The translations under genes were made by a program, and so were the position numbers. The notes under the pieces are model-generated. The model was not told where the DNA came from, did not search any database, and was given only the letters and a program-made list of their open reading frames with translations. Shown here in pieces: positions 169 to 63,765 of a stretch of DNA of 64,000 bases. Each line of letters opens with the position of its first letter. Within the stretch, counting starts at the first letter, position 1. Where the stretch lies: IMG/VR virus record IMGVR_UViG_3300020204_003072, positions 1 through 64,000 of that record; one strand, 5' to 3'. The DNA is from an uncultured virus (IMG/VR IMGVR_UViG_3300020204_003072). Taxonomy: Duplodnaviria > Heunggongvirae > Uroviricota > Caudoviricetes.

Positions 169-963
169 ATGAGAACAATTAATGAATATAATAAAAGATT
201 TTATCAATTAATTGAGTCAACAATGGGGAATGTTAAACCCTTAATAACTGAAGAAGAAAATACGATTTATTCTATTCCACCATTTAACAACTTACCAGAT
301 GAAATAAAAACAAACACCAATGATTTGTTTGATGGTAATGTTGTGAACAACATTATAAATTTAAGTGGTTTAACACAACCTATTAAAATATATCAAATAA
401 AAACCAAATTAAATCTTGGGAATTTAAGTGCAATTTATTGTTTTGTTGACAAATCTGATTATGCTAAGAAATTAAAAATAACAGACATTAAAGATGGTAC
501 AAACTGTTTTGTTTGTAGGTCAAATGGAAATGATTTAAATGATACATCAAATTTTGTTTTACATACAAAACAAGATGGTACTGAAACGGTTTCACAATTT
601 ACCCAAGAAACCTTCAATTTAAGAAATGTTGTTACAACGGGAAATAATGAACAGGCAATCCTTTATCAAACTTATGTTAAATTTAAAGAATATGAACCGT
701 TTAAATCAAACCCAAAAAGTATTTCTTTTAACACAAAAGAAAACCAAGTTAATATGAATTTCAAGGATATAAATGGAAAAGATAGGAATATTATTTTGGC
801 TAGTAGGGGAGCTGAAAATGTCGGAGGGGAAAGATTTTTCTATCTAGGAGCATTCGAGTGTAACGAAACATCTTGCCCACTCAATGATAAAATTACCGTT
901 AGTAATAAATCTCCATTAGTTACTGTTGAATCTTTCCAAAGTAATGGATTAATACCTAAATAG
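169..963 (+). CDS. Hypothetical protein with leader family A (RF.QL.ES.MG.VKPL..E)
   Basis: ATG 169 follows TATTTAT at 146-152; N-terminus matches ORFs 1071 and 4338. Confidence 0.75.
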   Translation: MRTINEYNKRFYQLIESTMGNVKPLITEEENTIYSIPPFNNLPDEIKTNTNDLFDGNVVNNIINLSGLTQPIKIYQIKTKLNLGNLSAIYCFVDKSDYAKKLKITDIKDGTNCFVCRSNGNDLNDTSNFVLHTKQDGTETVSQFTQETFNLRNVVTTGNNEQAILYQTYVKFKEYEPFKSNPKSISFNTKENQVNMNFKDINGKDRNIILASRGAENVGGERFFYLGAFECNETSCPLNDKITVSNKSPLVTVESFQSNGLIPK

Positions 964-973
964 TTTCCCACAA

Positions 974-1034
974 ACACGACCCCCATTTTAAAATAATCCT
1001 AATATTCGTAAAAAAATTTCTGGAAAAATTTTTT
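974..1034 (+). repeat. ~60-bp intergenic repeat, copy 1 (ACACGACCCCC...AATATTC...AAAAAATTT.TGGAA)
   Basis: Aligns by eye with 1538-1596 and 3132-3192. Confidence 0.85.
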
Positions 1035-1070
1035 AGAAAATCTGGGTATTTATTATTAAATAAAATTATT

Positions 1071-1454
1071 ATGGAAAAATATAGATTTAAACAATTATTA
1101 GAATCACAAATGGGGAATGTTAAACCTTTGATAAATGAAGACATAAATGATTTCCCTATTTGTGTTAGGTCTGCGGATGGAGGTAAAGTAACTAGTAATA
1201 AAAACGGAAGTAATTATATATTAGTTAGAAAAGCTCACACAAATGAACATGGTGAAAAACTAGATTATAAATGGTTCAAAGATGGTACTTTAGGTTATGC
1301 TGTGGCTGATGATTACCCCGATAAAGATATGGCCGGTAGAATTGTCGATTCAAAATATTACTATTGTAAATGTGTAAATAAAAAATGTGTTCCTAAAGTT
1401 GTTGATAAACCGAGACAACAACATGAATGTTCCGACCAAAAAAAATGCGATTAA
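1071..1454 (+). CDS. Cys-rich hypothetical protein with leader A
   Basis: MEKYRFKQLLESQMGNVKPLINE followed by DFPICVR domain shared with ORF 11494. Confidence 0.75.
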   Translation: MEKYRFKQLLESQMGNVKPLINEDINDFPICVRSADGGKVTSNKNGSNYILVRKAHTNEHGEKLDYKWFKDGTLGYAVADDYPDKDMAGRIVDSKYYYCKCVNKKCVPKVVDKPRQQHECSDQKKCD

Positions 1455-1460
1455 CTTTTT

Positions 1461-1498
1461 ACCCCCCCCCCCTTTCTACAACAAATAGGGGGTTTTTT
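1461..1498 (+). terminator. Intrinsic terminator
   Basis: ACCCCC...GGGGGT stem followed by T-run, after ORF 1071. Confidence 0.6.
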
Positions 1499-1537
1499 AT
1501 TTTCCATAAAACACTCCACTAACGTGTCGGTCTAAAG

Positions 1538-2148: not shown

Positions 2149-2688
2149 ATGAATAGAAGTCAATCAAAAATTAGACACATACAAGAAGCTAATAAAAGAT
2201 TAGAAAATAAACTAATACTTGAAAAAATTGGGGAACCTCTAACCCCAGAAGCGGCTGGTAGTCAAAAAGCACAATTCACCAAAAAGAAAGCACAATTTTT
2301 AAATTCATACTATAATATAAATTTATCCGCAGCACAAACTGGAAACTGGCAAGATAAAGATTTTAATGATACTTTAAAAAAGTATATGGAAGAAAAACAA
2401 ATTCCAGTTTGGGTTTGTAAAAAAGGTGATGGGTATTGTAACGATGATGCTGAAGGTGAGATTACTGCAAAAGGTGATGATTCAACAAAACTTCTTGATA
2501 GTATGAAAAAAATTGAAAAAGGAAAAGTAAATACAACATTTGATAAGGCGTATGATTATAAATTGGAAAATGGTAAATACTATTTTAAGGGAAAAGAAAA
2601 TACCCAGTATGTAAAAAAATATCCTAATTGGGTTGAGGCTACTGGTAAGGGTCTTGAATCAATTAAAAGTAAAGTTTCATTTGCTTAA
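2149..2688 (+). CDS. Hypothetical protein with leader family B (MNRS..KI.H.Q..N..LE)
   Basis: N-terminus shared with ORF 8129; TATTTAT upstream. Confidence 0.7.
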   Translation: MNRSQSKIRHIQEANKRLENKLILEKIGEPLTPEAAGSQKAQFTKKKAQFLNSYYNINLSAAQTGNWQDKDFNDTLKKYMEEKQIPVWVCKKGDGYCNDDAEGEITAKGDDSTKLLDSMKKIEKGKVNTTFDKAYDYKLENGKYYFKGKENTQYVKKYPNWVEATGKGLESIKSKVSFA

Positions 2689-3247: not shown

Positions 3248-3844
3248 ATGAAAAGATTTTTAGTGACTGAGGATGAGAAAAAACAAATTATGGATTTGTA
3301 TAAACAAGTGATTACTGAGGAATCTGAAGTTGTTAACTCTGTTAGGGTTGCAATGGATGCTAAAAAAGAAATGGAGACAACAGGTATTAACTATAACGTA
3401 GTTAAACTTGACGATGTTGTCGATTCAAACGAACCCACTTGTATTCCACAAACAGATGATGAGACTAATAATGGTATCATTGCAAGGGTTTGGGATTGGG
3501 CCAATAATCCTGAAAATAGAGGTAATCTTAAACAAACTTTATTTTCATTAAAAAACGCAATTTTTAAAGCTAAAGACCAAGTTAAAGGAGATACGTCAAC
3601 AACCCAAACAACAACAGTCCAAGTTAAAGATGAGACTCAACCAATGAATGAACAAGTTGAAACGGCCTTAATAACAATCGCAGGTGTTTCATTAGGACCA
3701 AGTGTTCTTATCGCGATTGGAGCGATTTTACTTATAATTATTATTGTTGCTATAGTTTCTAAAAGTGGAGGTAAAAGACGTTCTTCTTGTAAGAGAAGAA
3801 GTAAATTATTTAAACGTCACGGAATTGACGGAATGTTTATGTAA
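3248..3844 (+). CDS. Membrane protein with leader family C (..TE.EK..I..L(H/Y))
   Basis: MKRFLVTEDEKKQIMDLY; C-terminal hydrophobic segment followed by basic tail. Confidence 0.7.
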   Translation: MKRFLVTEDEKKQIMDLYKQVITEESEVVNSVRVAMDAKKEMETTGINYNVVKLDDVVDSNEPTCIPQTDDETNNGIIARVWDWANNPENRGNLKQTLFSLKNAIFKAKDQVKGDTSTTQTTTVQVKDETQPMNEQVETALITIAGVSLGPSVLIAIGAILLIIIIVAIVSKSGGKRRSSCKRRSKLFKRHGIDGMFM

Positions 3845-4337: not shown

Positions 4338-4736
4338 ATGGAACTAAATAGATTTAAACAATTATTGGAATCAACAATGGGGGAAGTTAAACCATTAACT
4401 GAACAACCAAAACCAATATCAATACCAAAAGAACCAATAACAATACCAAAAACAGTATCAATACCTCCATCTGATGTTGTCAAGTCAGGACAAACTCCGT
4501 CAGGAAATATAGATTATAAGTCATTCGAAAATCCCAATTTACCTGAATGTATTGACTTCCTTGAAGGTGGTGCTAGTCCTGAACTAACAATTCCACTTAA
4601 ACCCGGTGAAATGCCACGGATTATTCCTTTGATGGACGACGTTTCAATTGGACTAAATGCTCCTCACATTGAAAGATTTATTTTTATGTCAAAAAATGGT
4701 AAGGCGTTTTGTAGAACTCAAATGGAGAAATATTAA
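4338..4736 (+). CDS. Hypothetical protein with leader A
   Basis: MELNRFKQLLESTMGEVKPLTE. Confidence 0.7.
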   Translation: MELNRFKQLLESTMGEVKPLTEQPKPISIPKEPITIPKTVSIPPSDVVKSGQTPSGNIDYKSFENPNLPECIDFLEGGASPELTIPLKPGEMPRIIPLMDDVSIGLNAPHIERFIFMSKNGKAFCRTQMEKY

Positions 4737-4740: not shown

Positions 4741-5235
4741 ATGAAAAAAATTATAAGACTTACAGAATCAGATCTTGCAAGAATTGTTAAAAGAACAATT
4801 ATGGAACTTGATAGGTCCACATATGAAAGAGCCGCAGATAATGCAAATCAAAGAGGTTATTCAAAATTAGGTAATAGATTTCGTGAACACGGAAAAGAAT
4901 TTGGTTTAAACCAAGAAACAGGTAATGTTACAATGGTTGTAAAATATAAAGATGAAGAACAAACTTTAAACGTAAGAATTAATAGTGTTGAAGGGGAACC
5001 TAGTTATTCTATGAGTTATGCGATGAAAACAGAAGACCTTGAAACTGGAAATAAAAAAACATTTATGATAAACAAATATCTAGGTGAAATGGAGTTTTAT
5101 TTAAGTGGTGATTATCCATCTTTACCAAAAACAAGAACGGATGCTAAAAAGGTCTTAAAAGCTTTTGAAAGTAATGGTATTGATGCTAGTGATATTGACC
5201 CAAGGTCAATATCATATGATGATACCGATTTTTAA
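4741..5235 (+). CDS. Hypothetical protein with leader family D (MKKIIRLTESDL..IVKR.I.E)
   Basis: Start moved to ATG 4741 by similarity to ORFs 20169(-), 40998 and 41464. Confidence 0.75.
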   Translation: MKKIIRLTESDLARIVKRTIMELDRSTYERAADNANQRGYSKLGNRFREHGKEFGLNQETGNVTMVVKYKDEEQTLNVRINSVEGEPSYSMSYAMKTEDLETGNKKTFMINKYLGEMEFYLSGDYPSLPKTRTDAKKVLKAFESNGIDASDIDPRSISYDDTDF

Positions 5236-5578: not shown

Positions 5579-5932
5579 ATGAAATCCCTAATTAGAAAAA
5601 TCCTTAAAGAAGAATATACACCAACCGAAACTGATTTTTTATATTATGAAGTCCCAAAAAAGTTGGTTGCTCAATTGGGAATTGAATTATTTAAAGAAGA
5701 AGATGTTGTTTACATTACTGAAATTCATTTTGATACGCAAAATGTCCTATTTCAACTTTTTTCTAGATATCCCTTTGTTCATGGTGAAGAAATACATTAT
5801 GATGAAGATAGGAATGTTCCAGGTGACTTTGAATCAAATATATTAATTCCAATTAAAGATTTACCAAAAAGTGTTCTTAATATAATACTAAGAAGATTGG
5901 ACCCAGAATATTTAAAATATATGAATCTATGA
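5579..5932 (+). CDS. Hypothetical protein with MKSLIRKILKEE leader
   Basis: In-frame ATG 5579 immediately after previous stop. Confidence 0.65.
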   Translation: MKSLIRKILKEEYTPTETDFLYYEVPKKLVAQLGIELFKEEDVVYITEIHFDTQNVLFQLFSRYPFVHGEEIHYDEDRNVPGDFESNILIPIKDLPKSVLNIILRRLDPEYLKYMNL

Positions 5933-6534
5933 AAATCCTTATAACTGAAAATCAAATACATTTACTTAGATTACTTGGGCAATTCATTGAAATTGTTGAA
6001 GATCAGATTGAAGGTTATAAAGCCAATCTTAAATTTGCTTGGTGGTGTAAGGTTTATGATGAAGATAGTTTTACAACAAATCTTATTGATAGATCAATTG
6101 AAGAACTTATTGACCGAAACTGGGATTTTTTTCACGACAACACAGATAAGGGGGGAGCAACTATGGATCTTGAATTGATAGATGATTATGCTAGAGAACA
6201 TTATACCGAGCAAATTATTGATGTATTCAGACGTAAGTGTGGAAGTTCATTAAATGAATCAAAGATTGATTTTGTTAGAAGACTCCCAGCTGTTGAAGAA
6301 GAACTTAATAGACATTTAAAAAGGGTTGACCCCACAAAATTTGATTTCTTTCAACGTTATGTTGAATATCTTGCAAAAGTAACATTAATGTATGTTTCGG
6401 ATAATTTAATAAATCGTGATATTCGTGGAGAAAATTATGATTTATATACCGAATTTAGAAATCACATTATATATGGATTAAGAAATGATATAAGGGACAT
6501 ATATGATAGCCGTAAACCTGGTGGTTTATTTTAA
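5929..6534 (+). CDS. Two-domain F-x-RR family protein with MKILITE leader
   Basis: Internal SLNESKIDFVRRL resembles a second leader/domain junction. Confidence 0.65.
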   Translation: MKILITENQIHLLRLLGQFIEIVEDQIEGYKANLKFAWWCKVYDEDSFTTNLIDRSIEELIDRNWDFFHDNTDKGGATMDLELIDDYAREHYTEQIIDVFRRKCGSSLNESKIDFVRRLPAVEEELNRHLKRVDPTKFDFFQRYVEYLAKVTLMYVSDNLINRDIRGENYDLYTEFRNHIIYGLRNDIRDIYDSRKPGGLF

Positions 6535-6546: not shown

Positions 6547-6927
6547 ATGAAAATTATTATCACAGAATCTCAATACGAAAGACTACTTGTTGATTTGTCT
6601 CCAGCTTTAAAAAGACGATTGACAGATGAAGATTTGAATACTATTGAAAGATTGGTATTAAAAAATATTAAACACTGCTCATACCCTTATTATGCTGACC
6701 ATTTTGATTTTTTTGTTGATGATATTATTTATCAGACATTACACGAATTTGTTGCGGAATATAAAAGTGATGAAATTGATACCGAATATGACGAAGAATG
6801 GGGTGAAGTATGGATTGAAGATAGTAAAGAAAAAATATTTGACTTATATTGGCCGTTATTTGCAAACATTAAATCTTTATATACCGATAAATTACACGAT
6901 ATTTGGAAAGACATATTTAAGAAATGA
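6547..6927 (+). CDS. Acidic hypothetical protein with MKIIITESQY leader
   Basis: Paralog of ORF 6924 (LKRR(L/V)T...LH.F....K.(D/E)EIDT...(L/M)YW.L). Confidence 0.7.
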   Translation: MKIIITESQYERLLVDLSPALKRRLTDEDLNTIERLVLKNIKHCSYPYYADHFDFFVDDIIYQTLHEFVAEYKSDEIDTEYDEEWGEVWIEDSKEKIFDLYWPLFANIKSLYTDKLHDIWKDIFKK

Positions 6928-7298
6928 AAAAGTTAATAAAAGAATCGGAACATCTCAAAGGACTATTTGCCAGCCTTCCACCATTTTTAAAAAGGAGGGT
7001 TACAATTGCTGATTTAAAATGGATTGATGAAGAATTAACCAATTTTATTATCGCAACACCACCGACAGATAAATTTGATAATTTTTGTGATTATGTTCTT
7101 GGTGATTTGCTTCATAATTTTTTGGTTGATAGAAAAGATGAAGAGATTGATACGGTTGAAGACCCGGAATATGGTTTGATATATGATGATGAAAGTCTTG
7201 GTAAAGTTGCATCAATGTATTGGGAATTAATGCCATATCTTAAAAAAAGATATGAAATTAGACTTCATCAAGCTTGGGAAAGAAAGAAACAACAATAA
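6924..7298 (+). CDS. Paralog of ORF 6547
   Basis: MKKLIKESE leader; shared motifs. Confidence 0.7.
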   Translation: MKKLIKESEHLKGLFASLPPFLKRRVTIADLKWIDEELTNFIIATPPTDKFDNFCDYVLGDLLHNFLVDRKDEEIDTVEDPEYGLIYDDESLGKVASMYWELMPYLKKRYEIRLHQAWERKKQQ

Positions 7299-8128: not shown

Positions 8129-8422
8129 ATGAATAGAAGTTTTACAAAAATTAATCATATGCAAAAAGTAAATATGTTACTTGAAAATAGAATGTTACAA
8201 TATAAAACATTGATAAAAGAAGATACTTCAATACATATCACAAATGAAGATGAAGATGATATCGTATTTAAAACATCTCCAACATCAACAAAAAAATTTT
8301 ATTACAGTTGTAGTACCAAAAAAGTTCAAAGCGAAGGTGGTGGTACAGAATCACCAGTTTTGACAGATGGCGATAAAAAACTTTTAGACTTAAAGTGTCA
8401 AAGTAATAATAAAGCGGTTTAG
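8129..8422 (+). CDS. Hypothetical protein with leader B
   Basis: MNRSFTKINHMQKVNMLLENR...LIKE. Confidence 0.65.
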   Translation: MNRSFTKINHMQKVNMLLENRMLQYKTLIKEDTSIHITNEDEDDIVFKTSPTSTKKFYYSCSTKKVQSEGGGTESPVLTDGDKKLLDLKCQSNNKAV

Positions 8423-8484: not shown

Positions 8485-9240
8485 ATGAAAAACTATATTC
8501 TAACAGAAGAACAATTAACAAGGGTAATAACTGAAGAACGACCAATTAAAAAAGGTGTTGCAATCAAGTATTCACCAGGTAAAGGTGAAGACCCAGTTTA
8601 CCAATCTCATATGTTAGAGTTTAAGGATGAACAAGAATGGCAAGACTACAAAAAATCTCTTCCGAAAAAAAAAGAAATAATTGGTGTTATTGATATTAAA
8701 GAATCAATAAGTGAAAAAAAAAATCCGTTAATTTCTGAATCTGAAAACAAACGCATTGATGCTGGAAAAAAAATCTTATTAAGACATCTTAAAGATGAAT
8801 ACCCATTTATTATTAATATTAATATCAGAATAAAAGATGGATTGTTTGGTAATGTTAGTTTCAAGATTGATTTAAATAAATTTTATGATTTTTATAATGT
8901 AACACCACCAAATGATTATAAAGAATTTGATTTTCTATTACCAAACCTTGAAATTAGTAGATTGTATCTACAAAGTTATGTGGACGATAAGTTTAAAAAC
9001 GATTTTGGTTACGAATTTAATAGAAAGTTAGAAAAGTTTATGGATGATATTTACATACATTTACCAGAAAATATGATAAACTATAAGTTTGAAGGATTTT
9101 CAGATGAAGATTTTGAAACTGACGAATTTAGCACTAGAGATGTAAGTTTTTATAAAAGATGGCAAGGTGAAAAAGAACCGATTGAATTAAAAGTTGATGA
9201 TTACTTACCAGTAGTTGATTTAACTAAAATAAAATTTTAA
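8485..9240 (+). CDS. Hypothetical protein with MKNYILTEEQL leader
   Basis: ATG 8485 follows TATTTAT; several internal (L/I)-x-E sites. Confidence 0.65.
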   Translation: MKNYILTEEQLTRVITEERPIKKGVAIKYSPGKGEDPVYQSHMLEFKDEQEWQDYKKSLPKKKEIIGVIDIKESISEKKNPLISESENKRIDAGKKILLRHLKDEYPFIININIRIKDGLFGNVSFKIDLNKFYDFYNVTPPNDYKEFDFLLPNLEISRLYLQSYVDDKFKNDFGYEFNRKLEKFMDDIYIHLPENMINYKFEGFSDEDFETDEFSTRDVSFYKRWQGEKEPIELKVDDYLPVVDLTKIKF

Positions 9241-10230: not shown

Positions 10231-10788
10231 ATGAAATATCTAATAACAGAAAAACAAGGATCCAGACTGAAAAGTCAACTTTCACAATCATTTGATGAAA
10301 TTGGTTTTATTAATACAATCGATAGATACAGATTATCAATACCTCAACTTGATAAAATTTATAGAAATTCAAAATTACCAGAATTTAGTTGTGATGATTT
10401 AAATGAAATTTGTTCTAAATTAATTTATGAAAGTGATGTCAAAAAACGGTACATTACAGGAGAATATTTTATTAGTTTAGATATGGACGATTTTGTAGGT
10501 TCAGTATATTTCAAAGTAACAGATAATGAAACAACAAATAGTCTTGATGGTTATGCAACACCTTATTGGGATGGTAAATGTTTTTTACCAATTGATACTG
10601 AATATTACAATTTTACAGATGATGACGGTGAAATAATCGATGAAGAAATAACTGGTCAGTACTATAAACAAATAAAATTACCGACCAAATTTGAAAGTTT
10701 TCAGGCAATAGTAGATTGGATGGAAAATGATTATATACAGTATTTAATTAATTTTTGTAAACAAACCTTTGAAGAATTGGAATCTTAA
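10231..10788 (+). CDS. Hypothetical protein with MKYLITEKQ leader
   Basis: ORF; leader motif. Confidence 0.7.
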   Translation: MKYLITEKQGSRLKSQLSQSFDEIGFINTIDRYRLSIPQLDKIYRNSKLPEFSCDDLNEICSKLIYESDVKKRYITGEYFISLDMDDFVGSVYFKVTDNETTNSLDGYATPYWDGKCFLPIDTEYYNFTDDDGEIIDEEITGQYYKQIKLPTKFESFQAIVDWMENDYIQYLINFCKQTFEELES

Positions 10789-10918: not shown

Positions 10919-11452
10919 ATGACAAAAATATTAGTAACGGAAGACCAATACCAAAGATTAATAAAAAGAATTACAGAAGAAGCTGCCGGTTATGACGACT
11001 ATAATGTTATGGCTCATCACGGCGGTACTTCTATGAAAGTATTGATTGATACTTTTACAGATTTATCACAAGTTCTTAGAAGTATCGGATATATGTTAAA
11101 ATCTGAAAATATTGAATATGTTGATTTAAAAGAAAATTTATATGAAGCAATTGATTTAATTTCAGAAATTAATTCGGCAATGGATATTGTTTTCAAAGAT
11201 TTTACAGAAAAAGAATTAATTAGACTAGGTAAAATTTTACACAGAAAACTAGAATCTTATCAAGAAAAAATTAGAATAATGCTTAATATGGGTAAAGAAT
11301 TAATAACAAAAGAAACAATCATTGATAAACTTTTTGGCTTAACAATGAATGTTTATAGAGCTATGACAGATTATGCAGCCGAATTAAAAGTCACAGACAT
11401 TAAATTTCAAATAAGAATTGATAAAGGAAGCCCAAAAACCGATTTAAACTAA
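10919..11452 (+). CDS. Helical hypothetical protein with MTKILVTEDQY leader
   Basis: ORF; leader motif. Confidence 0.7.
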   Translation: MTKILVTEDQYQRLIKRITEEAAGYDDYNVMAHHGGTSMKVLIDTFTDLSQVLRSIGYMLKSENIEYVDLKENLYEAIDLISEINSAMDIVFKDFTEKELIRLGKILHRKLESYQEKIRIMLNMGKELITKETIIDKLFGLTMNVYRAMTDYAAELKVTDIKFQIRIDKGSPKTDLN

Positions 11453-51670: not shown

Positions 51671-51750
51671 ATTAAAAAGTTTTATTTAATTTTAATTATA
51701 AACTAACTAGTAGTCAATATTTGACATTCTGACATATGTTGTTAGAATAT

Positions 51751-51767: not shown

Positions 51768-51830
51768 TTTATCATTTTGGTATGGATTTGGTCAAATCAG
51801 AATCAAAATAAACTTATAAAAAAATAAATT

Positions 51831-53343: not shown

Positions 53344-54879
53344 ATGGGAGGATTAAGACCTATCGGAAGTGAAAAATTGGAAGGAATGGATAAAATCCGT
53401 AGAATTATGGAAATTGCCAGATATAATGAATCAATTCCACAACCAGTAAATGAAGATAAAAAAACAGAATATACTGCAGAACTTGCAGACGGAAAAACTT
53501 ATACAATTGTAAGAGAAAGATTAGGATATATAATCAAGGAAAGCTATGATGATATTAATTCTGATTACATCGAACCAATTCAAAATAGAAAGTATTTTTC
53601 TTCGTATTCACAGGCATTGAAAAAGTTAAACCTTATGGCTAAAGACTTTAATCAAATGTACGGAAATGAAGAAGGTATGTCTTTATTTACCGAGCAAAAA
53701 AAAAAGTTCAAACTAAAACTTCCTGGTAAAAAAAAAGCTGAACCAACTGGAGATGTAGGAGCATTACCTCCACCAGAACCAGTAGCAGCTTCGGCACCAA
53801 TGCCGGCAGCACCACCTATGGATAATATGGGGGGTGCGGGTATGGCGCCACCAGAAACAGGGACTGTAGAAGGTGAAGGGGCTTTACCTCCACCACCAGA
53901 TATGGGTGCAACTGGAAGTGATGAAGGACTACCTCCACCACCAGATATGGGTACGGAAGGAAGTGATGAAGGACTACCTCCACCACCAGAAGATGATATG
54001 GGTGATGAAGAAGAATTGCCTCCGCCACCAGAAGATGATATGGAAGATGAAGGTAAATCAAAGAAAGAAGGTGGAACTACATTTAAAGTAATACAAAAAC
54101 TTACCGGCAAATTAGCACAAAGAATTAGAAAATTTAATAGTGAAGATGATATGGATCCAAATGATGTTAAATACATTATTAATTCAATTTTATCAGCACT
54201 TGATGTTGATTTGTTAGATGATGACGATCTTGAAGAAATTATATCGAGATTAGAAGGTGATTTAGACGAAGAAGGTGATGAAGAAGATGAAGACTTAGAA
54301 GATGAAGAAATGAGTGACGAAGAAATACCAGAACCAACATCTGATGAAGAAGAAGAGACATTACCACCACCACCTCCTATTGGTGGTGAAACAACAGAAT
54401 ATCGTGAAATTGGTGAAATTGCAAGTTTATCTGATGCAATTAAAAACAGTGTATCAAAACAATACGCTGGTAGAATGTTTGATAAAATGAAAGAAATGCC
54501 GGTTACAGGTGAACTTGAAGAATATGGAAGACATGGTGCTAGACAACCAAGACACACATATAACCATTTTTCACACGGAACATTTGGCGAATCAAAAGTT
54601 GATAAAATTATTTCACAATATTTTACAACACAGAAAAAAGAAATTATTTCTGAAGAAAAGAAAAAAATACAAAAAATAGAAAAATACGAAAAAATCAAAG
54701 AAACAAATTACAGTAATGTTAAAAATCTTTCTGAAAATATTAAACAAGAAAGAATGGCATTAAAATATATGGAAAAAAATCCAGTTTCAGTTCTTATTGG
54801 AAAAACTAATAAGGGAAGTTTGGTATTTAAAGAAGGTGTTGTCAATACAAAAATTACAACAAACGGAATGGAAATATGA
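53344..54879 (+). CDS. Pro/acid-rich protein, possible head assembly/core component
   Basis: LPPPPDMG repeats; many (L/I)-x-E sites; upstream of head genes. Confidence 0.55.
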   Translation: MGGLRPIGSEKLEGMDKIRRIMEIARYNESIPQPVNEDKKTEYTAELADGKTYTIVRERLGYIIKESYDDINSDYIEPIQNRKYFSSYSQALKKLNLMAKDFNQMYGNEEGMSLFTEQKKKFKLKLPGKKKAEPTGDVGALPPPEPVAASAPMPAAPPMDNMGGAGMAPPETGTVEGEGALPPPPDMGATGSDEGLPPPPDMGTEGSDEGLPPPPEDDMGDEEELPPPPEDDMEDEGKSKKEGGTTFKVIQKLTGKLAQRIRKFNSEDDMDPNDVKYIINSILSALDVDLLDDDDLEEIISRLEGDLDEEGDEEDEDLEDEEMSDEEIPEPTSDEEEETLPPPPPIGGETTEYREIGEIASLSDAIKNSVSKQYAGRMFDKMKEMPVTGELEEYGRHGARQPRHTYNHFSHGTFGESKVDKIISQYFTTQKKEIISEEKKKIQKIEKYEKIKETNYSNVKNLSENIKQERMALKYMEKNPVSVLIGKTNKGSLVFKEGVVNTKITTNGMEI

Positions 54880-56202: not shown

Positions 56203-57579
56203 ATGGGAAATAGAGAATTAGAAAGACTTGTAAGAAAAATAATTAAGGAAGCACCAATTGATTATGGTGATTATCCTGAAAGAATGCACCCTAGAACACA
56301 ACAAAGAATTGAGGACCCAGAAGGTATCTACGCAAAGAATAGAGCTTTTAGGGGTGGTGCTTCTGATGTTGAAAAAATTGCTGGTAAAAGATTTAAAGAA
56401 ATTGTCGACTATGTAAAAAGATATTTTGGTACAGAACAAAATATTACAAACCCACAAGTTAAAATGTCAATACAAATGGCACAGATGCAAGCAGTTAGAC
56501 AAGCTATGCAACTTGAACCAAGATATAGAGAACAACTTAGAGATTTGGCGGTTGAAATTGCGGCTAAAGAAGAAGGTTGGTTACCTTATTCTGATAATAT
56601 GGAACAAGCAATTGAAAAAGGTTTGGTAATTAAAAAAAGAAAAGATGGTGGTGTTGTTTATGAATTTGATTTTGTTAATATGTTAACATTTTTAGGGGAA
56701 CAAGCAATCGACCCAAGTATTTTTAAAATGAAACCACAAAAAGAACAAAAACTTCCATTACCTCCAAATTTTTCTTTTGATATCGACGAACTAACACCAG
56801 AAGAACAAAAACAATTGGAAATTGAAAAAAGAAATGTTATCAATGCTATTATAATGGGTAAAGGAAAACGTGGTCAATTTGCTTACCAAATGTATAAGGA
56901 TAGATTAGACGCGATTGATCCAGGACTATACGCACTTTATAATAAAATTATGGGTGCTAATGACCTTATGTATTTTACAGATGAAGATTTGATTGAAGCT
57001 CTTGGTGGTAATGCCGCCGGTGCTGCAGGTAAAAAACAAGAAAGTAATGATGACGATGAAGACGAAGATGAAGGTGGTGAAGAAGGAGATGGAAATGATA
57101 CATATTATGCTAATGGCTTAATATTTCCAATTTTACTTCACGAACTATTCAAATCATTTTCAATGATTCAGTCAAGAGCACAATGGAAAGATATGGACCC
57201 AGAAATCGCAACACAAGTTATTGGTCAAACAGATACAATGCAAAACGAACCAATGAATTTCCGTGTTGGTGGTGAGCTTGTAAGAAAATTAAGAACCTTA
57301 CTTCCAGATGAATTAACATTGGATAATGAAGGTAAAAAATATATTCCTTTCTTTGAACAATTGTTATATAGTATTCCAGCTGAAGAATTTTTAAAAAATG
57401 TAATTGCAAATGTTATTTCAGATAGTCCATCTGATAATGAAAAAGCTAAGAAAAAATTCAACGAATTATTACAACAAGCAAAAGCTAACTATAAAAAATA
57501 TAAAGAAGGTGATGACGATGATGATGACTACGATGACGATGAAGAAGATGATGATATCTTAACAAGACTAGGTTTATAA
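56203..57579 (+). CDS. Hypothetical protein with LVRKIIKE leader
   Basis: ORF; acidic tracts; FPILLHEL. Confidence 0.7.
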   Translation: MGNRELERLVRKIIKEAPIDYGDYPERMHPRTQQRIEDPEGIYAKNRAFRGGASDVEKIAGKRFKEIVDYVKRYFGTEQNITNPQVKMSIQMAQMQAVRQAMQLEPRYREQLRDLAVEIAAKEEGWLPYSDNMEQAIEKGLVIKKRKDGGVVYEFDFVNMLTFLGEQAIDPSIFKMKPQKEQKLPLPPNFSFDIDELTPEEQKQLEIEKRNVINAIIMGKGKRGQFAYQMYKDRLDAIDPGLYALYNKIMGANDLMYFTDEDLIEALGGNAAGAAGKKQESNDDDEDEDEGGEEGDGNDTYYANGLIFPILLHELFKSFSMIQSRAQWKDMDPEIATQVIGQTDTMQNEPMNFRVGGELVRKLRTLLPDELTLDNEGKKYIPFFEQLLYSIPAEEFLKNVIANVISDSPSDNEKAKKKFNELLQQAKANYKKYKEGDDDDDDYDDDEEDDDILTRLGL

Positions 57580-57658: not shown

Positions 57659-59431
57659 ATGAGTCTATCAAAAGAACAAATAATGCTAGAGTATGTAAAA
57701 TGTATGAAAGATACACCATACGCATTAAGAACATACTTACAGACATACGATAATACGGTTTCACAATTTGTACCTTTGGAATTATTTCCAGATCAGGTTT
57801 CATTACTGAAGGACTATGAAGAACACGAAGAAAATATTGCATTAAAGTATCGTCAGGCTGGTGTGTCAACAGTGACTGCCGCTTGGATATCAAAAAAACT
57901 TGTGTTTGCAAAAAAAGAACGTCCAGAAAAAATATTGATTATTGCAAACAAACTTGATACGTCAATGGAAATGGCAAATAAAATTAGAGCATTTGTTGAC
58001 CAATGGCCTAAATGGGTTGGCGCTTCTTTTTCTGCAGATAAAAATTCACAAAGACATTACAAACTAACAAATGGTTGTGAAGTAAAAGCAGTTGCAACAT
58101 CACGAGATGCCTTGAGGGGTTATACACCTACGGTACTTGTATTTGATGAGGCCGCGTTTATCGAAGCTGATGGTGATTTTTGGGCAGCTTGTATGGCATC
58201 ACTTTCTACCGGTGGTAAAGTAATTGTTGTATCAACACCAAACGGTTATGACCCAATTTATTATGATGTATATAATCAGGCGGTTAAAGGTGTTAACAAC
58301 TTTAAAATTTCTGAAATGTTTTGGTGGAAAGACCCTAGATACTCAAAAGATTTATATCTGGTACCAACTGATGATATGGTTGATTATCTATTAAATAAAG
58401 ATGAAAAAGACCATTCTAAAAATATTTCATTTACTGATACTGACCCTTATGAAAGGGATTATGATAAAATAAAAGAATATTTTAATCAAGGATATAAACC
58501 CTGTTCTCCTTGGTATGAAAAAATGGTTAAAAAGTTAAAATACGATAAACGAAAAATTAACCAAGAGCTTAACTGTGAATTTCTGGGGTCTGGAGATAAC
58601 GTATTTGATGCTAAAGAATTAGATTATATAAAAACAAGTACAATACAAGACGCACCATCTAAATTAATGGGAAATTCGCTTTGGATGTGGAAAGAACCAG
58701 AACAAGGACATAAATACATTATGGGTGTTGACGTATCTCGTGGTGATAGTGAAGATTTTTCATCGATTCAAATTATTGATTTTGATGAGCGAGAACAAGT
58801 ATTTGAATATGTTGGAAAAATTCCACCAGACGCTTTAGCCGAAATTGCTTATAAATGGGGTATTATGTATAACGCATTTTGTGTTGTCGATATTACCGGT
58901 GGTATGGGTATTACGACAGTAAGAAAAATGCAAGAACTTGGTTATCGTAATTTATATATTGATGGTGTCGATTCAACAAACATTTGGTCATATAATCCAA
59001 AAGCACAAGATAAAATACCAGGAATAAATTTTAATAACAAACGTGTACAAATAATTGCGGCATTTGAAGAATATGTCAGACATAAATTTAAAATTAAAAG
59101 TACAAGATTATACAACGAAATGAATACTTTTGTTTATGTTAATGGAAGACCTGACCACCAAAAAGGACAACACGATGACCTTATAATGGCAATTTCTATG
59201 GCAATTTATGTTGGGGAATCTTCATTTTCAAAGTTGGAAAAAGTCGTTGAAAAAACTAAAGTAATGATTGAATCTTGGACTGTTTCAAATAACGATTCAG
59301 TAGGAAAACAAATTCATTTTGACCCAGTAATTCCAAATGGACATATGTTAAATGAAAGAATGAAAATGAATTCTGGACCGGCAAAAGAAGATTATATTAA
59401 ATACGGGTGGTTATTTGGTGGTAGAAAATAA
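57659..59431 (+). CDS. Terminase large subunit (T4 gp17-like)
   Basis: QVSLL adenine-binding; KYRQAGVST; Walker B VLVFDEAAFI; STPNG; nuclease GVDVSRG, HDD. Confidence 0.93.
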   Translation: MSLSKEQIMLEYVKCMKDTPYALRTYLQTYDNTVSQFVPLELFPDQVSLLKDYEEHEENIALKYRQAGVSTVTAAWISKKLVFAKKERPEKILIIANKLDTSMEMANKIRAFVDQWPKWVGASFSADKNSQRHYKLTNGCEVKAVATSRDALRGYTPTVLVFDEAAFIEADGDFWAACMASLSTGGKVIVVSTPNGYDPIYYDVYNQAVKGVNNFKISEMFWWKDPRYSKDLYLVPTDDMVDYLLNKDEKDHSKNISFTDTDPYERDYDKIKEYFNQGYKPCSPWYEKMVKKLKYDKRKINQELNCEFLGSGDNVFDAKELDYIKTSTIQDAPSKLMGNSLWMWKEPEQGHKYIMGVDVSRGDSEDFSSIQIIDFDEREQVFEYVGKIPPDALAEIAYKWGIMYNAFCVVDITGGMGITTVRKMQELGYRNLYIDGVDSTNIWSYNPKAQDKIPGINFNNKRVQIIAAFEEYVRHKFKIKSTRLYNEMNTFVYVNGRPDHQKGQHDDLIMAISMAIYVGESSFSKLEKVVEKTKVMIESWTVSNNDSVGKQIHFDPVIPNGHMLNERMKMNSGPAKEDYIKYGWLFGGRK

Positions 59432-59773: not shown

Positions 59774-61555
59774 ATGGAACAAAATACAAATCAACTTACA
59801 GTTTGGCAAAGACTTAATAAAGCATTTGGACCAAATTCTTTATTGGGTCAAGATATCCCAACACACAAGTTTAGTAAACAAGAATTACTTAAAACTAGGG
59901 ATAAATCCGAATTTGAAAAAGAAAAACTTCAAGCACAACAAACTTTATATTTATCAAACCAATGGCAAAAAATAGAAAGTAATTTATATACCCAAGCAAT
60001 ATATTACGAACCAACAAGACTTGCCGCGTTTTATGATTACGAATCTATGGAATTTACACCAGAAATTTCAACGGCTTTAGATATATATGCTGAAGAATCA
60101 ACAACCCCAAATGAAGACGGTTATATCTTACAAATATATTCCGAATCAAAAAGAATAAAAGGAATACTTGCGGATTTATTTAACAATACTTTAGATATTA
60201 ATACAAACTTACAAATGTGGATTAGAAACACTTGTAAATATGGTGATAACTTTGTTTATTTAAAATTAGACCCTGAAAAAGGAATTATTGGTGGTGTTCA
60301 ACTACCTAATATTGAAATTGAAAGATTCGAACGAGGTATGACACCTAAATCACCAAACACCGAAGTAAAAGTTAATGAAAGAGGTTTGAGATTTAATTGG
60401 AAAGAAAAAAATATGGAATTTAACACTTTTGAAGTGGCACATTTCAGATTACTTGGTGATGATAGAAAATTACCCTACGGTACTTCGATGTTAGAAAAAG
60501 CAAGGAGAATCTGGAAACAGTTAGTTTTGGCCGAAGATGCAATGTTGATATATAGAACATCAAGAGCACCAGAAAGAAGGGTGTTCAAGGTATTTGTTGG
60601 GAATATGGATGATAAGGATGTAGAACCTTACGTACAACGTGTTGCAAATAAATTTAAAAGAGATCAGGTTGTTGATAATAAAACCGGTAATGTAGATTTA
60701 AGATTTAATCAAATGGCAGTAGATCAGGATTATTTTATTCCGGTTAGAGATGCTACACAAACAATGCCAATTGAAACTCTACCTGGTGGTACAAACCTTT
60801 CAGAAATTGCTGATATTGAATATATCCAAAAGAAACTTGTTACAGCTTTAAGAATACCAAAAGCTTACCTTGGTTTTGAAGAACCGGTTGGTGATGGAAA
60901 AAATTTATCACTACTTGATATTCGTTTTGCAAGAACAATTAATAGAATACAAAAAAATATTTTATCAGAATTAAACAAAATTGCAATTATACATTTATTT
61001 CTTTTGGGGTTTGAAGATGAATTACAAAATTTTACATTAGGTTTAAATAATCCATCAAAACAAGCGGATCTTTTGATGGTTGATGTGTGGAAAGAAAAGG
61101 TAACACTATACAAAGATATGGTTACAGAAATTCCAAATACATTAGCACCAACATCAGCTACTTGGGCTAAAAAACATATTTTTGGATTTTCTGATGAAGA
61201 TATCAAACTTGATACTCAAAGACAAAGAATGGAAAGGGCTGTTGCCGCAGAACTTGCAAATACTGCAACAATTATAACACATACTGGATTATTTGATAAC
61301 ATTGATAGATTATATAAAACAATAAGTGGAACAACTGAAGGTGGAGAAGCAGGTGCTGCACCACCACCGGGAGGAGGACCACCACCAGCAGGAGGAGGAC
61401 CGCCGCCACCACCAGCAGGAGGTCTTGAAGGGTTACCTGAAAACAGAGAAAAATTAGAAAATTTATTACTAGAATCTAATGATGATGATTTTATAATAAA
61501 AAATAGTTCACTTGGTGATATTGAAAACGAATTATTAAAAATACTTAAAGATTGA
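59774..61555 (+). CDS. Portal protein (T4 gp20-like)
   Basis: EDAMLIYRTSRAPERRVF.V.VGNM, DYFIP, IETLPGG.NL.EI.DIEY. Confidence 0.95.
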   Translation: MEQNTNQLTVWQRLNKAFGPNSLLGQDIPTHKFSKQELLKTRDKSEFEKEKLQAQQTLYLSNQWQKIESNLYTQAIYYEPTRLAAFYDYESMEFTPEISTALDIYAEESTTPNEDGYILQIYSESKRIKGILADLFNNTLDINTNLQMWIRNTCKYGDNFVYLKLDPEKGIIGGVQLPNIEIERFERGMTPKSPNTEVKVNERGLRFNWKEKNMEFNTFEVAHFRLLGDDRKLPYGTSMLEKARRIWKQLVLAEDAMLIYRTSRAPERRVFKVFVGNMDDKDVEPYVQRVANKFKRDQVVDNKTGNVDLRFNQMAVDQDYFIPVRDATQTMPIETLPGGTNLSEIADIEYIQKKLVTALRIPKAYLGFEEPVGDGKNLSLLDIRFARTINRIQKNILSELNKIAIIHLFLLGFEDELQNFTLGLNNPSKQADLLMVDVWKEKVTLYKDMVTEIPNTLAPTSATWAKKHIFGFSDEDIKLDTQRQRMERAVAAELANTATIITHTGLFDNIDRLYKTISGTTEGGEAGAAPPPGGGPPPAGGGPPPPPAGGLEGLPENREKLENLLLESNDDDFIIKNSSLGDIENELLKILKD

Positions 61556-61578
61556 TATATTTATAATTAAAAATAATT

Positions 61579-62295
61579 ATGAAATTTGGTTTAATAAAAA
61601 GTAAGATAGAAAAATTACTTACAGAGTCATACAAAAGAAATTCTTTTAAAAATACATTATTTGTATTCAAAGAATTGGTATTGGAAAATAAAAATATTAG
61701 TAAACTTTATTACTTGTATGATGAATTATCAAGTAGTAAGGGGTTAACTGAATCTACAGCTTCTGAATTAATAAACCAATCAACAATATTATATGAAAAT
61801 ACAATTAATAAAATTCCTAAAAAAAATCTAGAAGAAATTAATCTTTGGGTTGGGCATATCAAAACAAAAAATAATTACGAAGATATTGATAATCTGTTTT
61901 CAAGTAGTGTTTTAACATTAGAAAACAAAATTAAAAGTAAAAAGGTTATTTTAGAAAATTTAAAGAAAACTTCAGAAGATTTTGAAGTTATTGGTAATGT
62001 ACCTGTAAATAAATTAGTAAATGTTGCAAATAAAACTGTTGATAAATTTATTAATTCGTTAAACGAAGAAAGTAAAAAAATTTTAAATAAAATTTTATCT
62101 GAAGATGAAAATAAATTGAAACTTAAATATGAACTTCTAAAAGAAGATGTTATTGATAAGTTAGAAACTATGAAAACTTCTGAAACAGATTCAGAAGTTG
62201 TTAAGACAATTTATGAAACTATAAACAAGGTCGAAAAAGAAAATTTTGATAGAATTTCCTTTTTTAAATTACAAGAATTAAATAGAAGTCTTTAA
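61579..62295 (+). CDS. Hypothetical head-module protein
   Basis: Between portal and protease; TATTTAT upstream. Confidence 0.65.
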   Translation: MKFGLIKSKIEKLLTESYKRNSFKNTLFVFKELVLENKNISKLYYLYDELSSSKGLTESTASELINQSTILYENTINKIPKKNLEEINLWVGHIKTKNNYEDIDNLFSSSVLTLENKIKSKKVILENLKKTSEDFEVIGNVPVNKLVNVANKTVDKFINSLNEESKKILNKILSEDENKLKLKYELLKEDVIDKLETMKTSETDSEVVKTIYETINKVEKENFDRISFFKLQELNRSL

Positions 62296-62477
62296 TTCTG
62301 GTTCATAAATTTTTGTCGGTGAATTGCTTTTTGTAGAACTTGTCTTCTTTCTACTGATTTTTTTGTAAATTCTTTTCTATAATTAAGATTGGAATTTTGT
62401 CTGGTTTTTATAACCTTACCTTTTAATTCTTTAAGTGCTTTTTCGATGTCGTTTTTTTTTACTTGTATTATTAACAT
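62292..62477 (-). CDS. rpsU: Ribosomal protein bS21
   Basis: MLII.VK..IEKALK.LK.K..KT...RKEFTKKSV.RR..QKA; Bacteroidota-type. Confidence 0.9.
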   Translation of the reverse strand: MLIIQVKKNDIEKALKELKGKVIKTRQNSNLNYRKEFTKKSVERRQVLQKAIHRQKFMNQN

Positions 62478-62559
62478 ATATGATTTTATTTTATTTGATA
62501 TATATTACAAAATTATGTAAATTTAAATAAAATAAACATCGAGACTATGAAAAATTTTT

Positions 62560-63027
62560 ATGAAAAAGGGAAAAACCTCAAAAATTAATGGATTTCGTAC
62601 ATCCAAAGTAACTTATGGAACTGTAGATTCCAAAAATTTTAAATCACTTTATTTAAACATCCAAACTTGGGTGGAGCCAAAAAAAGAATCCGAAAACTGG
62701 AATAGGGTTGTTCTCAATATGAATAGAAGTGTTAAACATTCCGTTCATAATCACATAAGTAAAGAAATTTTTGATGTAAAATTTATTGTAGATTTAGACC
62801 TTAGAACAAGTGGTTTACAGATAAAGAAAAAATCTTTTATGAATTTAGAAATAACTTTATTTTTAAATCAAGAAATAGACTTTAAATCAACGAAATTAAA
62901 AAAATATCTTAAAAATCTAACAAAAGAAATTTATTCAGATGTATTTCTTGGCAATGAGTATTTCAAATTTTATTTCACAAAAAATGGAAATACTAAACCT
63001 TTAAAAGTAAAAACCGAAAAAGTTTAA
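62560..63027 (+). CDS. Hypothetical phage protein
   Basis: ORF in head module. Confidence 0.7.
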   Translation: MKKGKTSKINGFRTSKVTYGTVDSKNFKSLYLNIQTWVEPKKESENWNRVVLNMNRSVKHSVHNHISKEIFDVKFIVDLDLRTSGLQIKKKSFMNLEITLFLNQEIDFKSTKLKKYLKNLTKEIYSDVFLGNEYFKFYFTKNGNTKPLKVKTEKV

Positions 63028-63048
63028 TATTTATAATAAAATTTAAAT

Positions 63049-63765
63049 ATGAAAATTTTAGGACCAAACGAAACTGGAAAAGGAATCCTTATCGAATATG
63101 ACGCTGGGTATATAAACCCAAGAAGTCAAAATAATCATTACATAATGGAATCCCAAAATTTTTTGGACCATTCAAAACCATTTGAATTTTACGCTGTTCT
63201 ACAAAAGTACGATACCCCGAATAGAAACGGTAGAGTGTATCCAGAAAAGATATTAAAAAGGGAAGTAGAAAATTATAAAAAAATAATTGAAAAGGGAACT
63301 TCACTTTCTGAACTTAATCACCCAGAATCTTCATTAATTGATCTTGATAGGGTATCACACATTATTACTGATGTGTGGTGGGATGGTCCGATATTACTTG
63401 GTAAATTGAAACTATTAACATCACCTGGTTTTCACGAAAGAGGAGTTTGTTCAACAAAGGGAGACTTAGCTGCAAACTATTTAAGACAGGGAGTCACACT
63501 TGGTATTTCTTCTCGTGGTGTTGGTTCGTTAAAAAAGGTTGGTGAACAAAACGAAGTACAAGATGATTTTGAATTAATTTGTTTTGACCTTGTATCTTCA
63601 CCGTCAACACCAGGTGCTTATCTTTTCTTAGATAAAAATGATAGAATAAAATTTGATGAAAACTTGGAAGAAGAAAAAAGAATGAACGTGGAAAGAAATG
63701 TTGGTGAAAGTGGTAACAAATCTCTTGACTTAATGAAAAGATTATCCGATTATTTGGGTAAATAA
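63049..63765 (+). CDS. Prohead maturation protease (T4 gp21-like)
   Basis: NRNGRVYP, ELNHP, GISSRGVGS, FDLVSSPS. Confidence 0.93.
   Translation: MKILGPNETGKGILIEYDAGYINPRSQNNHYIMESQNFLDHSKPFEFYAVLQKYDTPNRNGRVYPEKILKREVENYKKIIEKGTSLSELNHPESSLIDLDRVSHIITDVWWDGPILLGKLKLLTSPGFHERGVCSTKGDLAANYLRQGVTLGISSRGVGSLKKVGEQNEVQDDFELICFDLVSSPSTPGAYLFLDKNDRIKFDENLEEEKRMNVERNVGESGNKSLDLMKRLSDYLGK

Follow-up and report, generated by a model that had tools for sequence, protein, structure and literature searches.

Propeptides of 10-19 residues at the N-termini of the internal proteins of bacteriophage T4 target these proteins to the core and are removed after a Glu by the gp21 protease; according to the same account, replacing that Glu with Asp stops cutting while targeting remains, and Alt and gp21 have C-terminal propeptides too (PMC9026906). 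The internal proteins are described as hypervariable, with the capsid targeting sequence (CTS) alone conserved (PMC9026906, PMC7411985, PMC3012670), and the T4 literature has speculated that the CTS allows T4-like phages to acquire various proteins (PMC9026906). In the T4 record, ipII and ipIII both start with MKTYQEFIAE and then diverge. For phage SPN3US, many head-protein propeptides are reported to be cut after a Glu motif that recalls that of gp21; eight cleaved head proteins are described, and the propeptides were proposed to target proteins into the prohead, the protease itself by way of its C-terminus (PMC7411985). The present analysis concerns a 64,000-nucleotide stretch of DNA (the window), bases 1-64,000 of the 127,688-bp virus record IMGVR_UViG_3300020204_003072 in IMG/VR, in which about one third of the genes start or end with a few shared short peptides, here called leaders.

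The record has a CheckV completeness estimate of 44% and a G+C content of ~30%, and it derives from an uncultured T4-like phage with a genome of ~300 kb; complete relatives have genomes of 269-321 kb. A T4-type head module lies within the window:

53344..54879, plus strand: head-module scaffold-like protein of 511 residues with an E-like N-terminal motif, MDKIRRIMEIA
57659..59431, plus strand: large terminase (domain and family searches)
59774..61555, plus strand: T4-type portal, gp20 (PF07230, 4e-75)
63049..63765, plus strand: S77 prohead protease, gp21 homologue (PF03420, 5JBL), with an invariant L14-x-E16 and a conserved C-terminal tail, SLDLMKRLSDYLGK

A gp21 homologue at 63049 had been named in an earlier note on this DNA, and its identity was confirmed by a Peptidase_S77 match (PF03420, residues 53-192, E 1.1e-22, 81 bits vs a cut-off of 27) and by a match to the T4 gp21 structure 5JBL (E 2.8e-14). 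Just past the window end follow a hyper-acidic scaffold at 64020 (likely start MAKNQ, 545 residues) and a gp23-like capsid protein at 65814, which matches gp23 structures at E 3e-25. The record encodes an S77 protease together with a portal and a capsid protein of T4 type. The L14-x-E16 of the protease is invariant in 28 orthologues, and alignment to mature gp23 predicts L42-K43-E44 at the mature N-terminus of the capsid protein. An LIE site is likewise described near the N-terminus of T4 gp21 (PMC9026906). Judging from these sites, the S77 protease has plausibly kept the cleavage specificity of the T4 type.

By a generous tally, an N-terminal leader is present on 31 of the 87 open reading frames (ORFs) of the window, which were called with a crude ATG-only caller, and a related C-terminal helix is present on three more. 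The families A-F and the short forms claimed in the earlier note were all found in the sequence at the positions given there, and the genes at 6924 and 14946 were added. Genes are named below by the coordinate at which they start, except that minus-strand genes are given as ranges; the basis of each assignment stands in brackets where it is a sequence, motif or profile match.

169..963, plus strand: A leader, 264 residues, ends PLITE at Glu28; late-type motif 24 nucleotides (nt) upstream
1071..1454, plus strand: A leader, 127 residues, ends PLINE at Glu23; cargo domain DFPICVR in common with the C-leader gene 11494
4338..4736, plus strand: A leader, 132 residues, ends PLTE at Glu22 (sequence, profile)
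2149..2688, plus strand: B leader, 179 residues; 26-residue match to 8129 only, relatives without a match
8129..8422, plus strand: B leader, 97 residues; pair with 2149
3248..3844, plus strand: C leader, 198 residues, hydrophobic C-terminal stretch (sequence, profile)
11494..12816, plus strand: C leader, 440 residues, ends LLKE at Glu34 (sequence, profile)
12829..13656, plus strand: C leader, 275 residues, ends LIME at Glu35 (sequence, profile)
22095..22964, plus strand: C leader at residues 1-25, ends LLVE; 289 residues, YkuD-like cargo; 10 orthologues agree in 13 of the 25 leader columns
26364..26990, plus strand: weak C-like N-terminus, 208 residues, (L/I)xE absent from residues 1-42 (sequence, profile)
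4741..5235, plus strand: D leader, 164 residues, LTE at Glu9 and IME at Glu22 (sequence, profile)
19618..20169, minus strand: D leader, 183 residues (sequence, profile); late-type motif
40998..41435, plus strand: D leader, 145 residues (sequence, profile)
41464..41826, plus strand: D leader, 120 residues (sequence, profile)
5929..6534, plus strand: short leader MKILITE, 201 residues (motif)
6547..6927, plus strand: short leader MKIIITE, 126 residues (motif); paralogue of 6924
6924..7298, plus strand: short leader MKKLIKE, 124 residues; 65% identical to residues 119-238 of a 246-residue protein of the relative G003 (fusion or split)
8485..9240, plus strand: short leader MKNYILTE, 251 residues; C-terminal two-thirds match a G003 protein with a different N-terminus
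10231..10788, plus strand: short leader MKYLITE, 185 residues (motif)
10919..11452, plus strand: short leader MTKILVTE followed by an RLIKRITEE helix, 177 residues (motif, profile)
14946..15521, plus strand: short leader MKKIIKE, weak, 191 residues (motif, profile)
25395..26012, minus strand: short leader MKIIISE, 205 residues (motif); late-type motif upstream
5579..5932, plus strand: half-D N-terminus SLIRKILKEE, 117 residues (D profile, independent E-value (iE) 0.018)
20248..20856, plus strand: half-D N-terminus NIIKRVINEE, 202 residues (D profile, iE 0.003)
56203..57579, plus strand: conserved head-module protein, 458 residues, half-D N-terminus LERLVRKIIKE, acidic tail (profile); 81% identical in G003
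30114..31703, plus strand: E leader, 529 residues, ends FLTE at Glu29 (sequence, profile)
31713..33914, plus strand: E leader, 733 residues, ends IINE at Glu25 (sequence, profile)
33966..35447, plus strand: E leader, 493 residues, ends LLLE at Glu29 (sequence, profile)
28129..29148, plus strand: F leader, 339 residues; pair with 29150
29150..30097, plus strand: F leader, 315 residues; pair with 28129
24393..24989, plus strand: uncertain leader (LILE at Glu9 plus helix) on a zincin-like HExxH protein, 198 residues (weak Pfam match, profile)
35472..37892, plus strand: 806-residue protein with a C-terminal D motif at residues 783-806 (nt 37818-37889), KLTE before the motif (D profile, iE 3.4e-10)
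44692..45771, plus strand: 359-residue protein with a C-terminal tail, NRIKDLMKKIL, like the scaffold tail (iE 0.14, weak)
47730..48779, plus strand: 349-residue protein with an amphipathic C-terminal helix, NIKKVLKKLL, after ELLE; weak (sequence)

Some of these memberships are narrower than had been claimed. The gene at 26364 has a C-like N-terminus, although a weak one without the (L/I)xE boundary. Families B and F exist, but each is a single pair without matches in relatives in the profile scan, and the F pair is also alike at the C-termini. The short forms are present, but none is individually significant against the D profile. The carriers had been called otherwise unrelated, which holds for many of them but not for 4741/40998/41464, 6547/6924 and 30114/33966, which are full-length paralogues. 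Among the C-terminal helices, the D motif of 35472 is strong, whereas the matches in 44692 and 47730 are weak. Profile and motif scans of the record found more members beyond the window, at 125350 and 71928 on the minus strand and at 69129.

The sharing of these N-termini exceeds what chance would give. Among 131 proteins of at least 80 residues (8,515 pairs), the N-terminal 35-mers gave 80 pairs with a Smith-Waterman score of at least 35, vs 13 for shuffled N-termini; the next 35 residues gave 27 such pairs and the C-termini 39. The short form [ILV][ILV][TS]E starts at residues 3-7 in 9 of 151 ORFs of this record, vs 0.6 expected (p 1e-8). It recurs in 17 of 153 ORFs of G003, a syntenic relative whose terminase is 88% and whose portal is 83% identical, and in 0 of 95 in G004, a contig without the variable region. 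Leader-type genes as a whole make up roughly a quarter of the genes in both this record (~37/151) and G003 (~37/153), and the D, A and C profiles also match proteins of relatives. The D leaders differ among themselves at 64 synonymous codon pairs, and selection therefore acts on the protein and not on the DNA or RNA; an origin of the similarity at the RNA level or by recent duplication was rejected on these synonymous differences.

The D motif (LTESDLxRIVKRVIxE) is widespread. A 32-position profile read against 1.84 billion cluster representatives matched 7,683 representatives of 50%-identity clusters at E ≤ 0.001, of which 218 scored at E ≤ 1e-10. Among the best 150 of these proteins, 107 have a single copy, beginning within residues 1-4 in 106 cases, and 43 have at least two copies; the 78 cargo parts of at least 50 residues taken from this set fall into 74 groups that are unrelated by BLAST. 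A word-indexed search with a 45-residue alignment gave 2,303 matches among 7,971 scored, and the best 120 of them, a sample biased toward multi-copy proteins, contain 194 instances of the motif (89 N-terminal, 100 internal and 5 C-terminal). In multi-module ORFs, the D motif stands ahead of every ~80-100-residue module, and a module found by itself behind a leader in one contig can be fused behind another module elsewhere and still keep its leader. The C family, with the fuller consensus MKNLFIINEEEKNRILNLHExATKxQYLxE, gave 278 matches among 7,999 scored and is N-terminal in 118 of the best 120. Leaders and cargoes also recombine, in that the cargo domain DFPICVR stands behind an A leader in one gene (1071) and behind a C leader in another (11494).

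The presence of the D motif inside multi-module ORFs and at a C-terminus is new beyond the earlier note. The true C-terminal case is the 806-residue product of 35472. In 69129 the motif seems C-terminal but is internal, because an in-frame TAA splits a 507-residue gene (69129-70652); this codon, at 70239-70241 (L082:7239-7241, outside the window), reads Glu in a near-identical relative with an intact gene and is a nonsense variant or a sequencing error. A locus search with a full-length leader protein recovered only 4 loci and was complemented with a degenerate DNA pattern. All five complete D-bearing genomes (269-321 kb) encode an S77 protease and have 8-17 D hits each, so that leaders and a gp21-like protease occur together in this record and in 5/5 complete relatives. 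A consensus-like D leader was absent from 50,697 cultured-phage records by tblastn, even at E ≤ 10, which is weak evidence given the short query and the active low-complexity filter. No report of the leader motifs or of comparable leader repertoires was found in the papers searched, where only T4, SPN3US, P1 and unrelated work surfaced.

The earlier note had proposed that similarity usually stops at an (L/I)-x-E, and this was borne out in D and C, the two well-sampled families. Across 154 distinct D instances, L7 is conserved in 98%, E9 in 99%, L12 in 95% and the second Glu in 97%, the least conserved residue is the one between the Ile and the second Glu, and information content drops from 4.1 bits to 1.2-1.8 bits directly past that Glu. 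The D core is a single amphipathic helix whose hydrophobic face is conserved. In the C family, an (L/I)-x-E lies within 22 residues after the helix in 108 of 111 distinct leaders, vs 74 of 961 background windows, and information content falls from ~1.8 to ~0.5 bits after the Glu. Within this genome, at least one [LI]xE is present in residues 1-30 of 30/31 leader proteins vs 45/109 others, and at least two are present in 18 leader proteins vs 7/109 others, an enrichment (5-fold) that is inflated because the leader set is partly defined by the motif and members of a family are not independent. Each C-terminal helix also has an (L/I)-x-E 10-35 residues before the end, which may be chance.

Leader genes share upstream signals with structural genes. 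The most enriched upstream 8-mer, ATATTTAT, occurs 59 times in the genome, 35 times within the 60 nt that precede a called start. The related pattern [AGT]TATTTAT lies upstream of terminase, portal, protease, capsid and tail genes, and upstream of 15/25 leader genes defined by regular expression vs 34/126 others; the narrower form [AG]TATTTAT sits 11-51 nt before many structural and leader genes (e.g. window 145-152 and 63020-63030). A different motif, TAnnTTTG, lies upstream of 11 genes, none of which has a leader. No leader was found on the Pfam-recognised metabolic or replication enzymes. Leader genes also turn over more rapidly than the genes around them: an orthologue is present in G003 for 12/33 leader genes vs 36/47 non-leader genes (p 4.5e-4), and median identity to the G003 orthologues is 51% vs 74%. 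In the family of 22095, the leader is exceptional in being more constant than the cargo (13/25 vs 60/264 invariant columns in 10 orthologues); as a general rule, a leader more conserved than its cargo was rejected.

Nearly all carriers are ORFans by Pfam and PHROGs. Where a domain is recognisable, it is almost always one that acts on the cell wall. Of 59 leader proteins of relatives scanned with Pfam, 6 had matches above the cut-off, and 5 of these 6 were cell-wall modules (Peptidase_M23 twice, Phage_lysozyme with LysM, PG_binding_1 and LysM), the sixth being DUF6576. Precomputed Pfam assignments for 17 of the best 120 C-leader proteins comprised PG_binding_1 in 14, M23 in 2 and PF25218 only in 1. 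YkuD L,D-transpeptidases have the catalytic motif His ... S-x-G-C-(I/V)-(R/N). The YkuD-like cargo proposed for 22095 is made likely by an invariant His and S-x-G-C-I-N, with H214, S243, G245, C246, I247 and N248 invariant in 10 orthologues, though the Pfam match is below the cut-off (E 3.6e-4, 21.6 bits vs 23.4). An AlphaFold model from a 10-row alignment was poor (mean predicted local distance difference test (pLDDT) 56), with the leader outside the domain at pLDDT <50; Foldseek with this model against the PDB returned nothing at E ≤ 0.001, and several L,D-transpeptidases were among the weak rows.

Other cargo assignments in the earlier note fared less well. For the zincin, the candidate gene at 24393 encodes an HExxH and has a weak Peptidase_M91 match (E 1.2e-3). 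In 3248, the hydrophobic stretch near the C-terminus makes a membrane-protein cargo plausible, and Pfam, PHROGs, a PDB sequence search and Atlas gave no match for an ADP-ribosyltransferase-like (ART-like) cargo. The ESM Atlas gave no usable match for 11494 or 47730, and a PDB sequence search with 44692 gave nothing. The same search with 47730 returned weak rows only, at E 0.002 an uncharacterised ATP-binding protein from M. jannaschii and at E 0.098 the MecA adaptor. Several cargoes are Cys-rich.

The likeness to the T4 CTS (IPI, IPII, IPIII and Alt, cut by gp21) lies in a short shared N-terminal peptide that ends at (L/I)-x-E on unrelated, fast-evolving proteins, and in the S77 (gp21-type) protease, T4-type portal and T4-type capsid protein encoded here. 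MKTYQEFIAE is shared and then followed by divergence, as are MKIIITE and MKKxIxLTE here, and T4 likewise has C-terminal propeptides, on Alt and gp21. By eye, no homology of the leaders to MKTYQEFIAE is detectable, with only M-K and a terminal (I/L)-x-E in common. The differences are considerable: at least five or six leader classes here vs one in T4; a leader length of up to 22-35 residues, which takes in a helix and a pair of Glu sites; carriers numbering in the dozens in each genome vs four; and internal copies in multi-module ORFs. The recognisable cargo, known here from sequence alone, consists of cell-wall enzymes, whereas that of T4 is anti-restriction or ADP-ribosylating. New relative to the T4 literature are the size of the repertoire, its division into several leader classes, the internal "polyprotein" copies and a cargo that acts on the cell wall. 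SPN3US, phiKZ and 201phi2-1, which have a gp21-related protease, resemble this phage in the propeptides described on many jumbo-phage head and ejection proteins, but those propeptides are long (111-130 residues) with no shared short cassette in the available accounts, and these phages form a separate lineage. Encapsulin cargo-loading peptides and P22 scaffold-fusion loading likewise use a terminal peptide, modular and flexible in position, to dock diverse cargo inside an HK97-fold shell; these peptides are not cut off by a maturation protease, and encapsulins are not viruses.

Because the sequence features match the logic of T4 capsid targeting one by one, the explanation that we favour, with somewhat better than even confidence, is that the leaders are CTS-like dock-and-cut peptides that would load proteins into the capsid and then be cleaved by the S77 protease. 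Each leader consists of a short hydrophobic segment with (I/L)-(T/S/x)-E at its end, usually followed by an amphipathic and often basic helix that runs to a second (L/I)-x-E. During head assembly, the leader would dock on the scaffolding core, whose main protein is hyper-acidic, or on the inner face of the shell, and anything fused to it would become enclosed. The S77 protease would then cut after the Glu and leave the cargo free inside the head, to exit with the DNA at the next infection; internal D copies would be points at which the products of multi-module ORFs could be divided into several small proteins. Direct observations comprise the sequence pattern and how widely it occurs, the (L/I)-x-E boundary, the association with a promoter motif, the hypervariability of the leader genes and the domains found in the cargo. 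The earlier note had likewise read the leaders as head-loading signals, and each testable sequence-level prediction of that reading came out as expected, whereas packaging and cutting themselves are inferred.

The head genes offer a possible docking partner. The scaffold tail, NLIE-SKTYENPQFLRMKDLMxK(I/L)K, is near-invariant in 36 orthologues, while overall identity falls to ~45%, and DLMxK(I/L) is common to the tails of the scaffold, the protease (SLDLMKRLSDYLGK) and the cargo 44692 (NRIKDLMKKIL). A profile of the E type had 16 sites at iE < 1, all of them terminal (10 N- and 6 C-terminal), ten of the 16 being its own seeds. Mimicry of the scaffold tail by cargo tails is suggestive only. A resemblance between the D leader and the capsid propeptide (RVIKE vs KVIKE) was considered and rejected, as the D profile has no capsid match at E ≤ 10. 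Complex prediction for the protease and the D leader, from alignments of 28 and 14 rows respectively, scored 0.00 in both runs, which had no controls and speak neither for nor against an interaction.

Several points weigh against loading and cleavage in the head. Binding, packaging, cleavage and ejection of the cargo are deduced for every member from sequence. The (L/I)-x-E is a short motif in a proteome rich in Ile, Leu and Glu, and its 5-fold enrichment is inflated by the definition of the set and by homology within families, as noted. With the scaffold-tail profile, 44692 was the top non-scaffold match among 399 proteins, but its iE of 0.14 is not significant alone. In 11 orthologue pairs, leaders are 52% and cargoes 55% identical. 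The assignment of [AG]TATTTAT to late genes was inferred from the genes behind the motif. Head cargo encoded by about a quarter of all genes would be a payload of unusual size, and the clade is without a cultured member in the phage collection of 50,697 records. Finally, a Clp-type ATPase co-occurs with the leaders as perfectly as the S77 protease does (5/5 complete D-bearing genomes), and co-occurrence therefore fails to single out the protease.

The strongest competitor, which we nonetheless consider unlikely, is that the leaders are docking helices for another assembly, such as the lumen of the tail or baseplate, an assembly site at a membrane or hetero-oligomers formed by the small proteins, and are not removed by the head protease. 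An amphipathic D helix with a conserved hydrophobic face, found at N-terminal, internal and C-terminal positions, is what a pure binding module would look like; cell-wall enzymes are typical of many phage tails and baseplates; and the promoter motif of the leader genes is common to tail as well as head genes. A binding helix alone, however, leaves unexplained that the strongest conservation falls on two Glu residues and on the Leu or Ile two residues before each, and that similarity ends at the Glu. The genomic setting also points to the head: half-D motifs begin two conserved head-region proteins (56203 and 69129), and, as a minor point, leader genes lie within the protease-scaffold interval in 2 of 39 loci (L046 and L078) and one leader-bearing gene follows the protease gene in G003.

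Plain paralogy seems highly improbable. On this account, the carriers would be diverged products of tandem duplication in a hyperplastic region, with the N-terminus as their slowest-evolving part and without a common address function. The full-length paralogues among the carriers, the tandem clustering of leader genes and the restriction of B and F to single pairs agree with it. It does not explain why one leader type is found on unrelated known folds (M23, GH24 lysozyme, PG_binding_1 and YkuD), why 78 D cargoes fall into 74 unrelated groups, why one cargo domain has different leaders in 1071 and 11494, or why the D motif recurs between modules; the leader of 22095 also lies outside the domain, at pLDDT <50, in the poor AlphaFold model.

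Still less probable is that the leaders are recognition tags for the phage ClpB/ClpC-like AAA+ unfoldase and its candidate adaptors, serving timed remodelling, unfolding or degradation. Such tags can be N- or C-terminal, the gene for the double-AAA+ ATPase (49610-51670) adjoins that of a two-UVR-motif protein, 47730 is weakly MecA-like, and 5/5 complete D-bearing genomes encode the ATPase, at a distance of 13-18 kb from the protease. This proposal predicts neither the (L/I)-x-E boundary nor the late, hypervariable pattern, ClpP is present in just 1/5 genomes, the MecA match has an E of 0.098, and co-occurrence within one clade is all that ties the tags to the ATPase. Inhibitory or export propeptides that hold lysis or cell-wall enzymes in an inactive state, or direct them late in infection to the envelope, are equally improbable: the recognisable cargo is overwhelmingly peptidoglycan-active and several cargoes have the high Cys content common in envelope proteins, but the leaders are charged and amphipathic without a Sec/Tat-like hydrophobic core, occur also on 500-800-residue proteins, conserved head-module proteins and internal sites, and mostly precede cargoes without an enzyme domain, and one phage seldom needs four or more endolysins.

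If the dock-and-cut explanation is true, T4 capsid targeting would be a general and expandable addressing system, by which giant phages carry dozens of fast-changing proteins, cell-wall enzymes included, into the next host. It would suggest where thousands of hypothetical metagenomic proteins are located and what they do (7,683 representatives for the D motif alone), and it would supply ready natural tags with which foreign proteins could be loaded into large capsids. It also predicts exact cleavage sites that can be checked by mass spectrometry. An extended version is offered only tentatively. According to it, about a fifth to a quarter of the genes, perhaps 60-80 per genome, would be addressed to the head by interchangeable cassettes in a widespread clade of lake phages; the multi-module ORFs would be true polyproteins processed in the prohead, releasing a 13-residue basic helix; and the payload would include a battery of peptidoglycan hydrolases that breach the cell wall on ejection, so that the phage would bring its entry tools in the head and not, as T4 does with its lysozyme, on the tail. 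Were this so, it would be a natural and evolvable form of protein delivery, far larger than any described.

A related portal is encoded on >600 IMG/VR stretches, and the closest cultured portals, from a Microcystis phage and Flavobacterium phages, are just 39-42% identical. The host is probably a member of the Bacteroidota, because TAnnTTTG motifs, which we read as host-type promoters, lie upstream of genes, a CHU_C type IX secretion domain is encoded, and no Shine-Dalgarno-like sequences were seen upstream of called starts in the record. The CHU_C domain is in the last of three tandem plus-strand genes (16802-18549) whose products have signal-peptide-like N-termini, with PKD-like domains in two; these products look like proteins exported through a Bacteroidota host pathway.

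Several other features of the record deserve mention. The 806-residue product of 35472 has a long (PS)PP repeat (PSPPSPPSPP...) near its N-terminus. The cluster at 47730-52202 comprises the ClpB/ClpC-like double-AAA+ ATPase, which lacks Clp_N (49610-51670, minus strand), and beside it the two-UVR-motif protein (51831-52202), an M20/M42-like peptidase (48808-49593) and the weakly MecA-like 47730; all five complete relatives have an AAA_2 gene at 13-18 kb from that of the protease. A gene-poor stretch at 42.9-47.7 kb contains a full-length Rfam match to GOLLD RNA (46499-46910, plus strand, 302 bits, gathering score 150). A transfer-messenger RNA (tmRNA) was matched by Rfam at 47288-47678 on the minus strand (104 bits), where ARAGORN reported none; the only ARAGORN prediction was a tRNA-Arg(TCT) at 40827-40901. 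Many genes for glycosyltransferases, methyltransferase-like proteins and nucleotide-sugar enzymes lie at 38781-40601 of the window and at ~78-91 kb and 106-115 kb of the record, and N-termini encoded at 82-84 kb resemble NAD-dependent epimerases or dehydratases. This gene content suggests glycosylation of the virion or DNA, or modification of the host surface.

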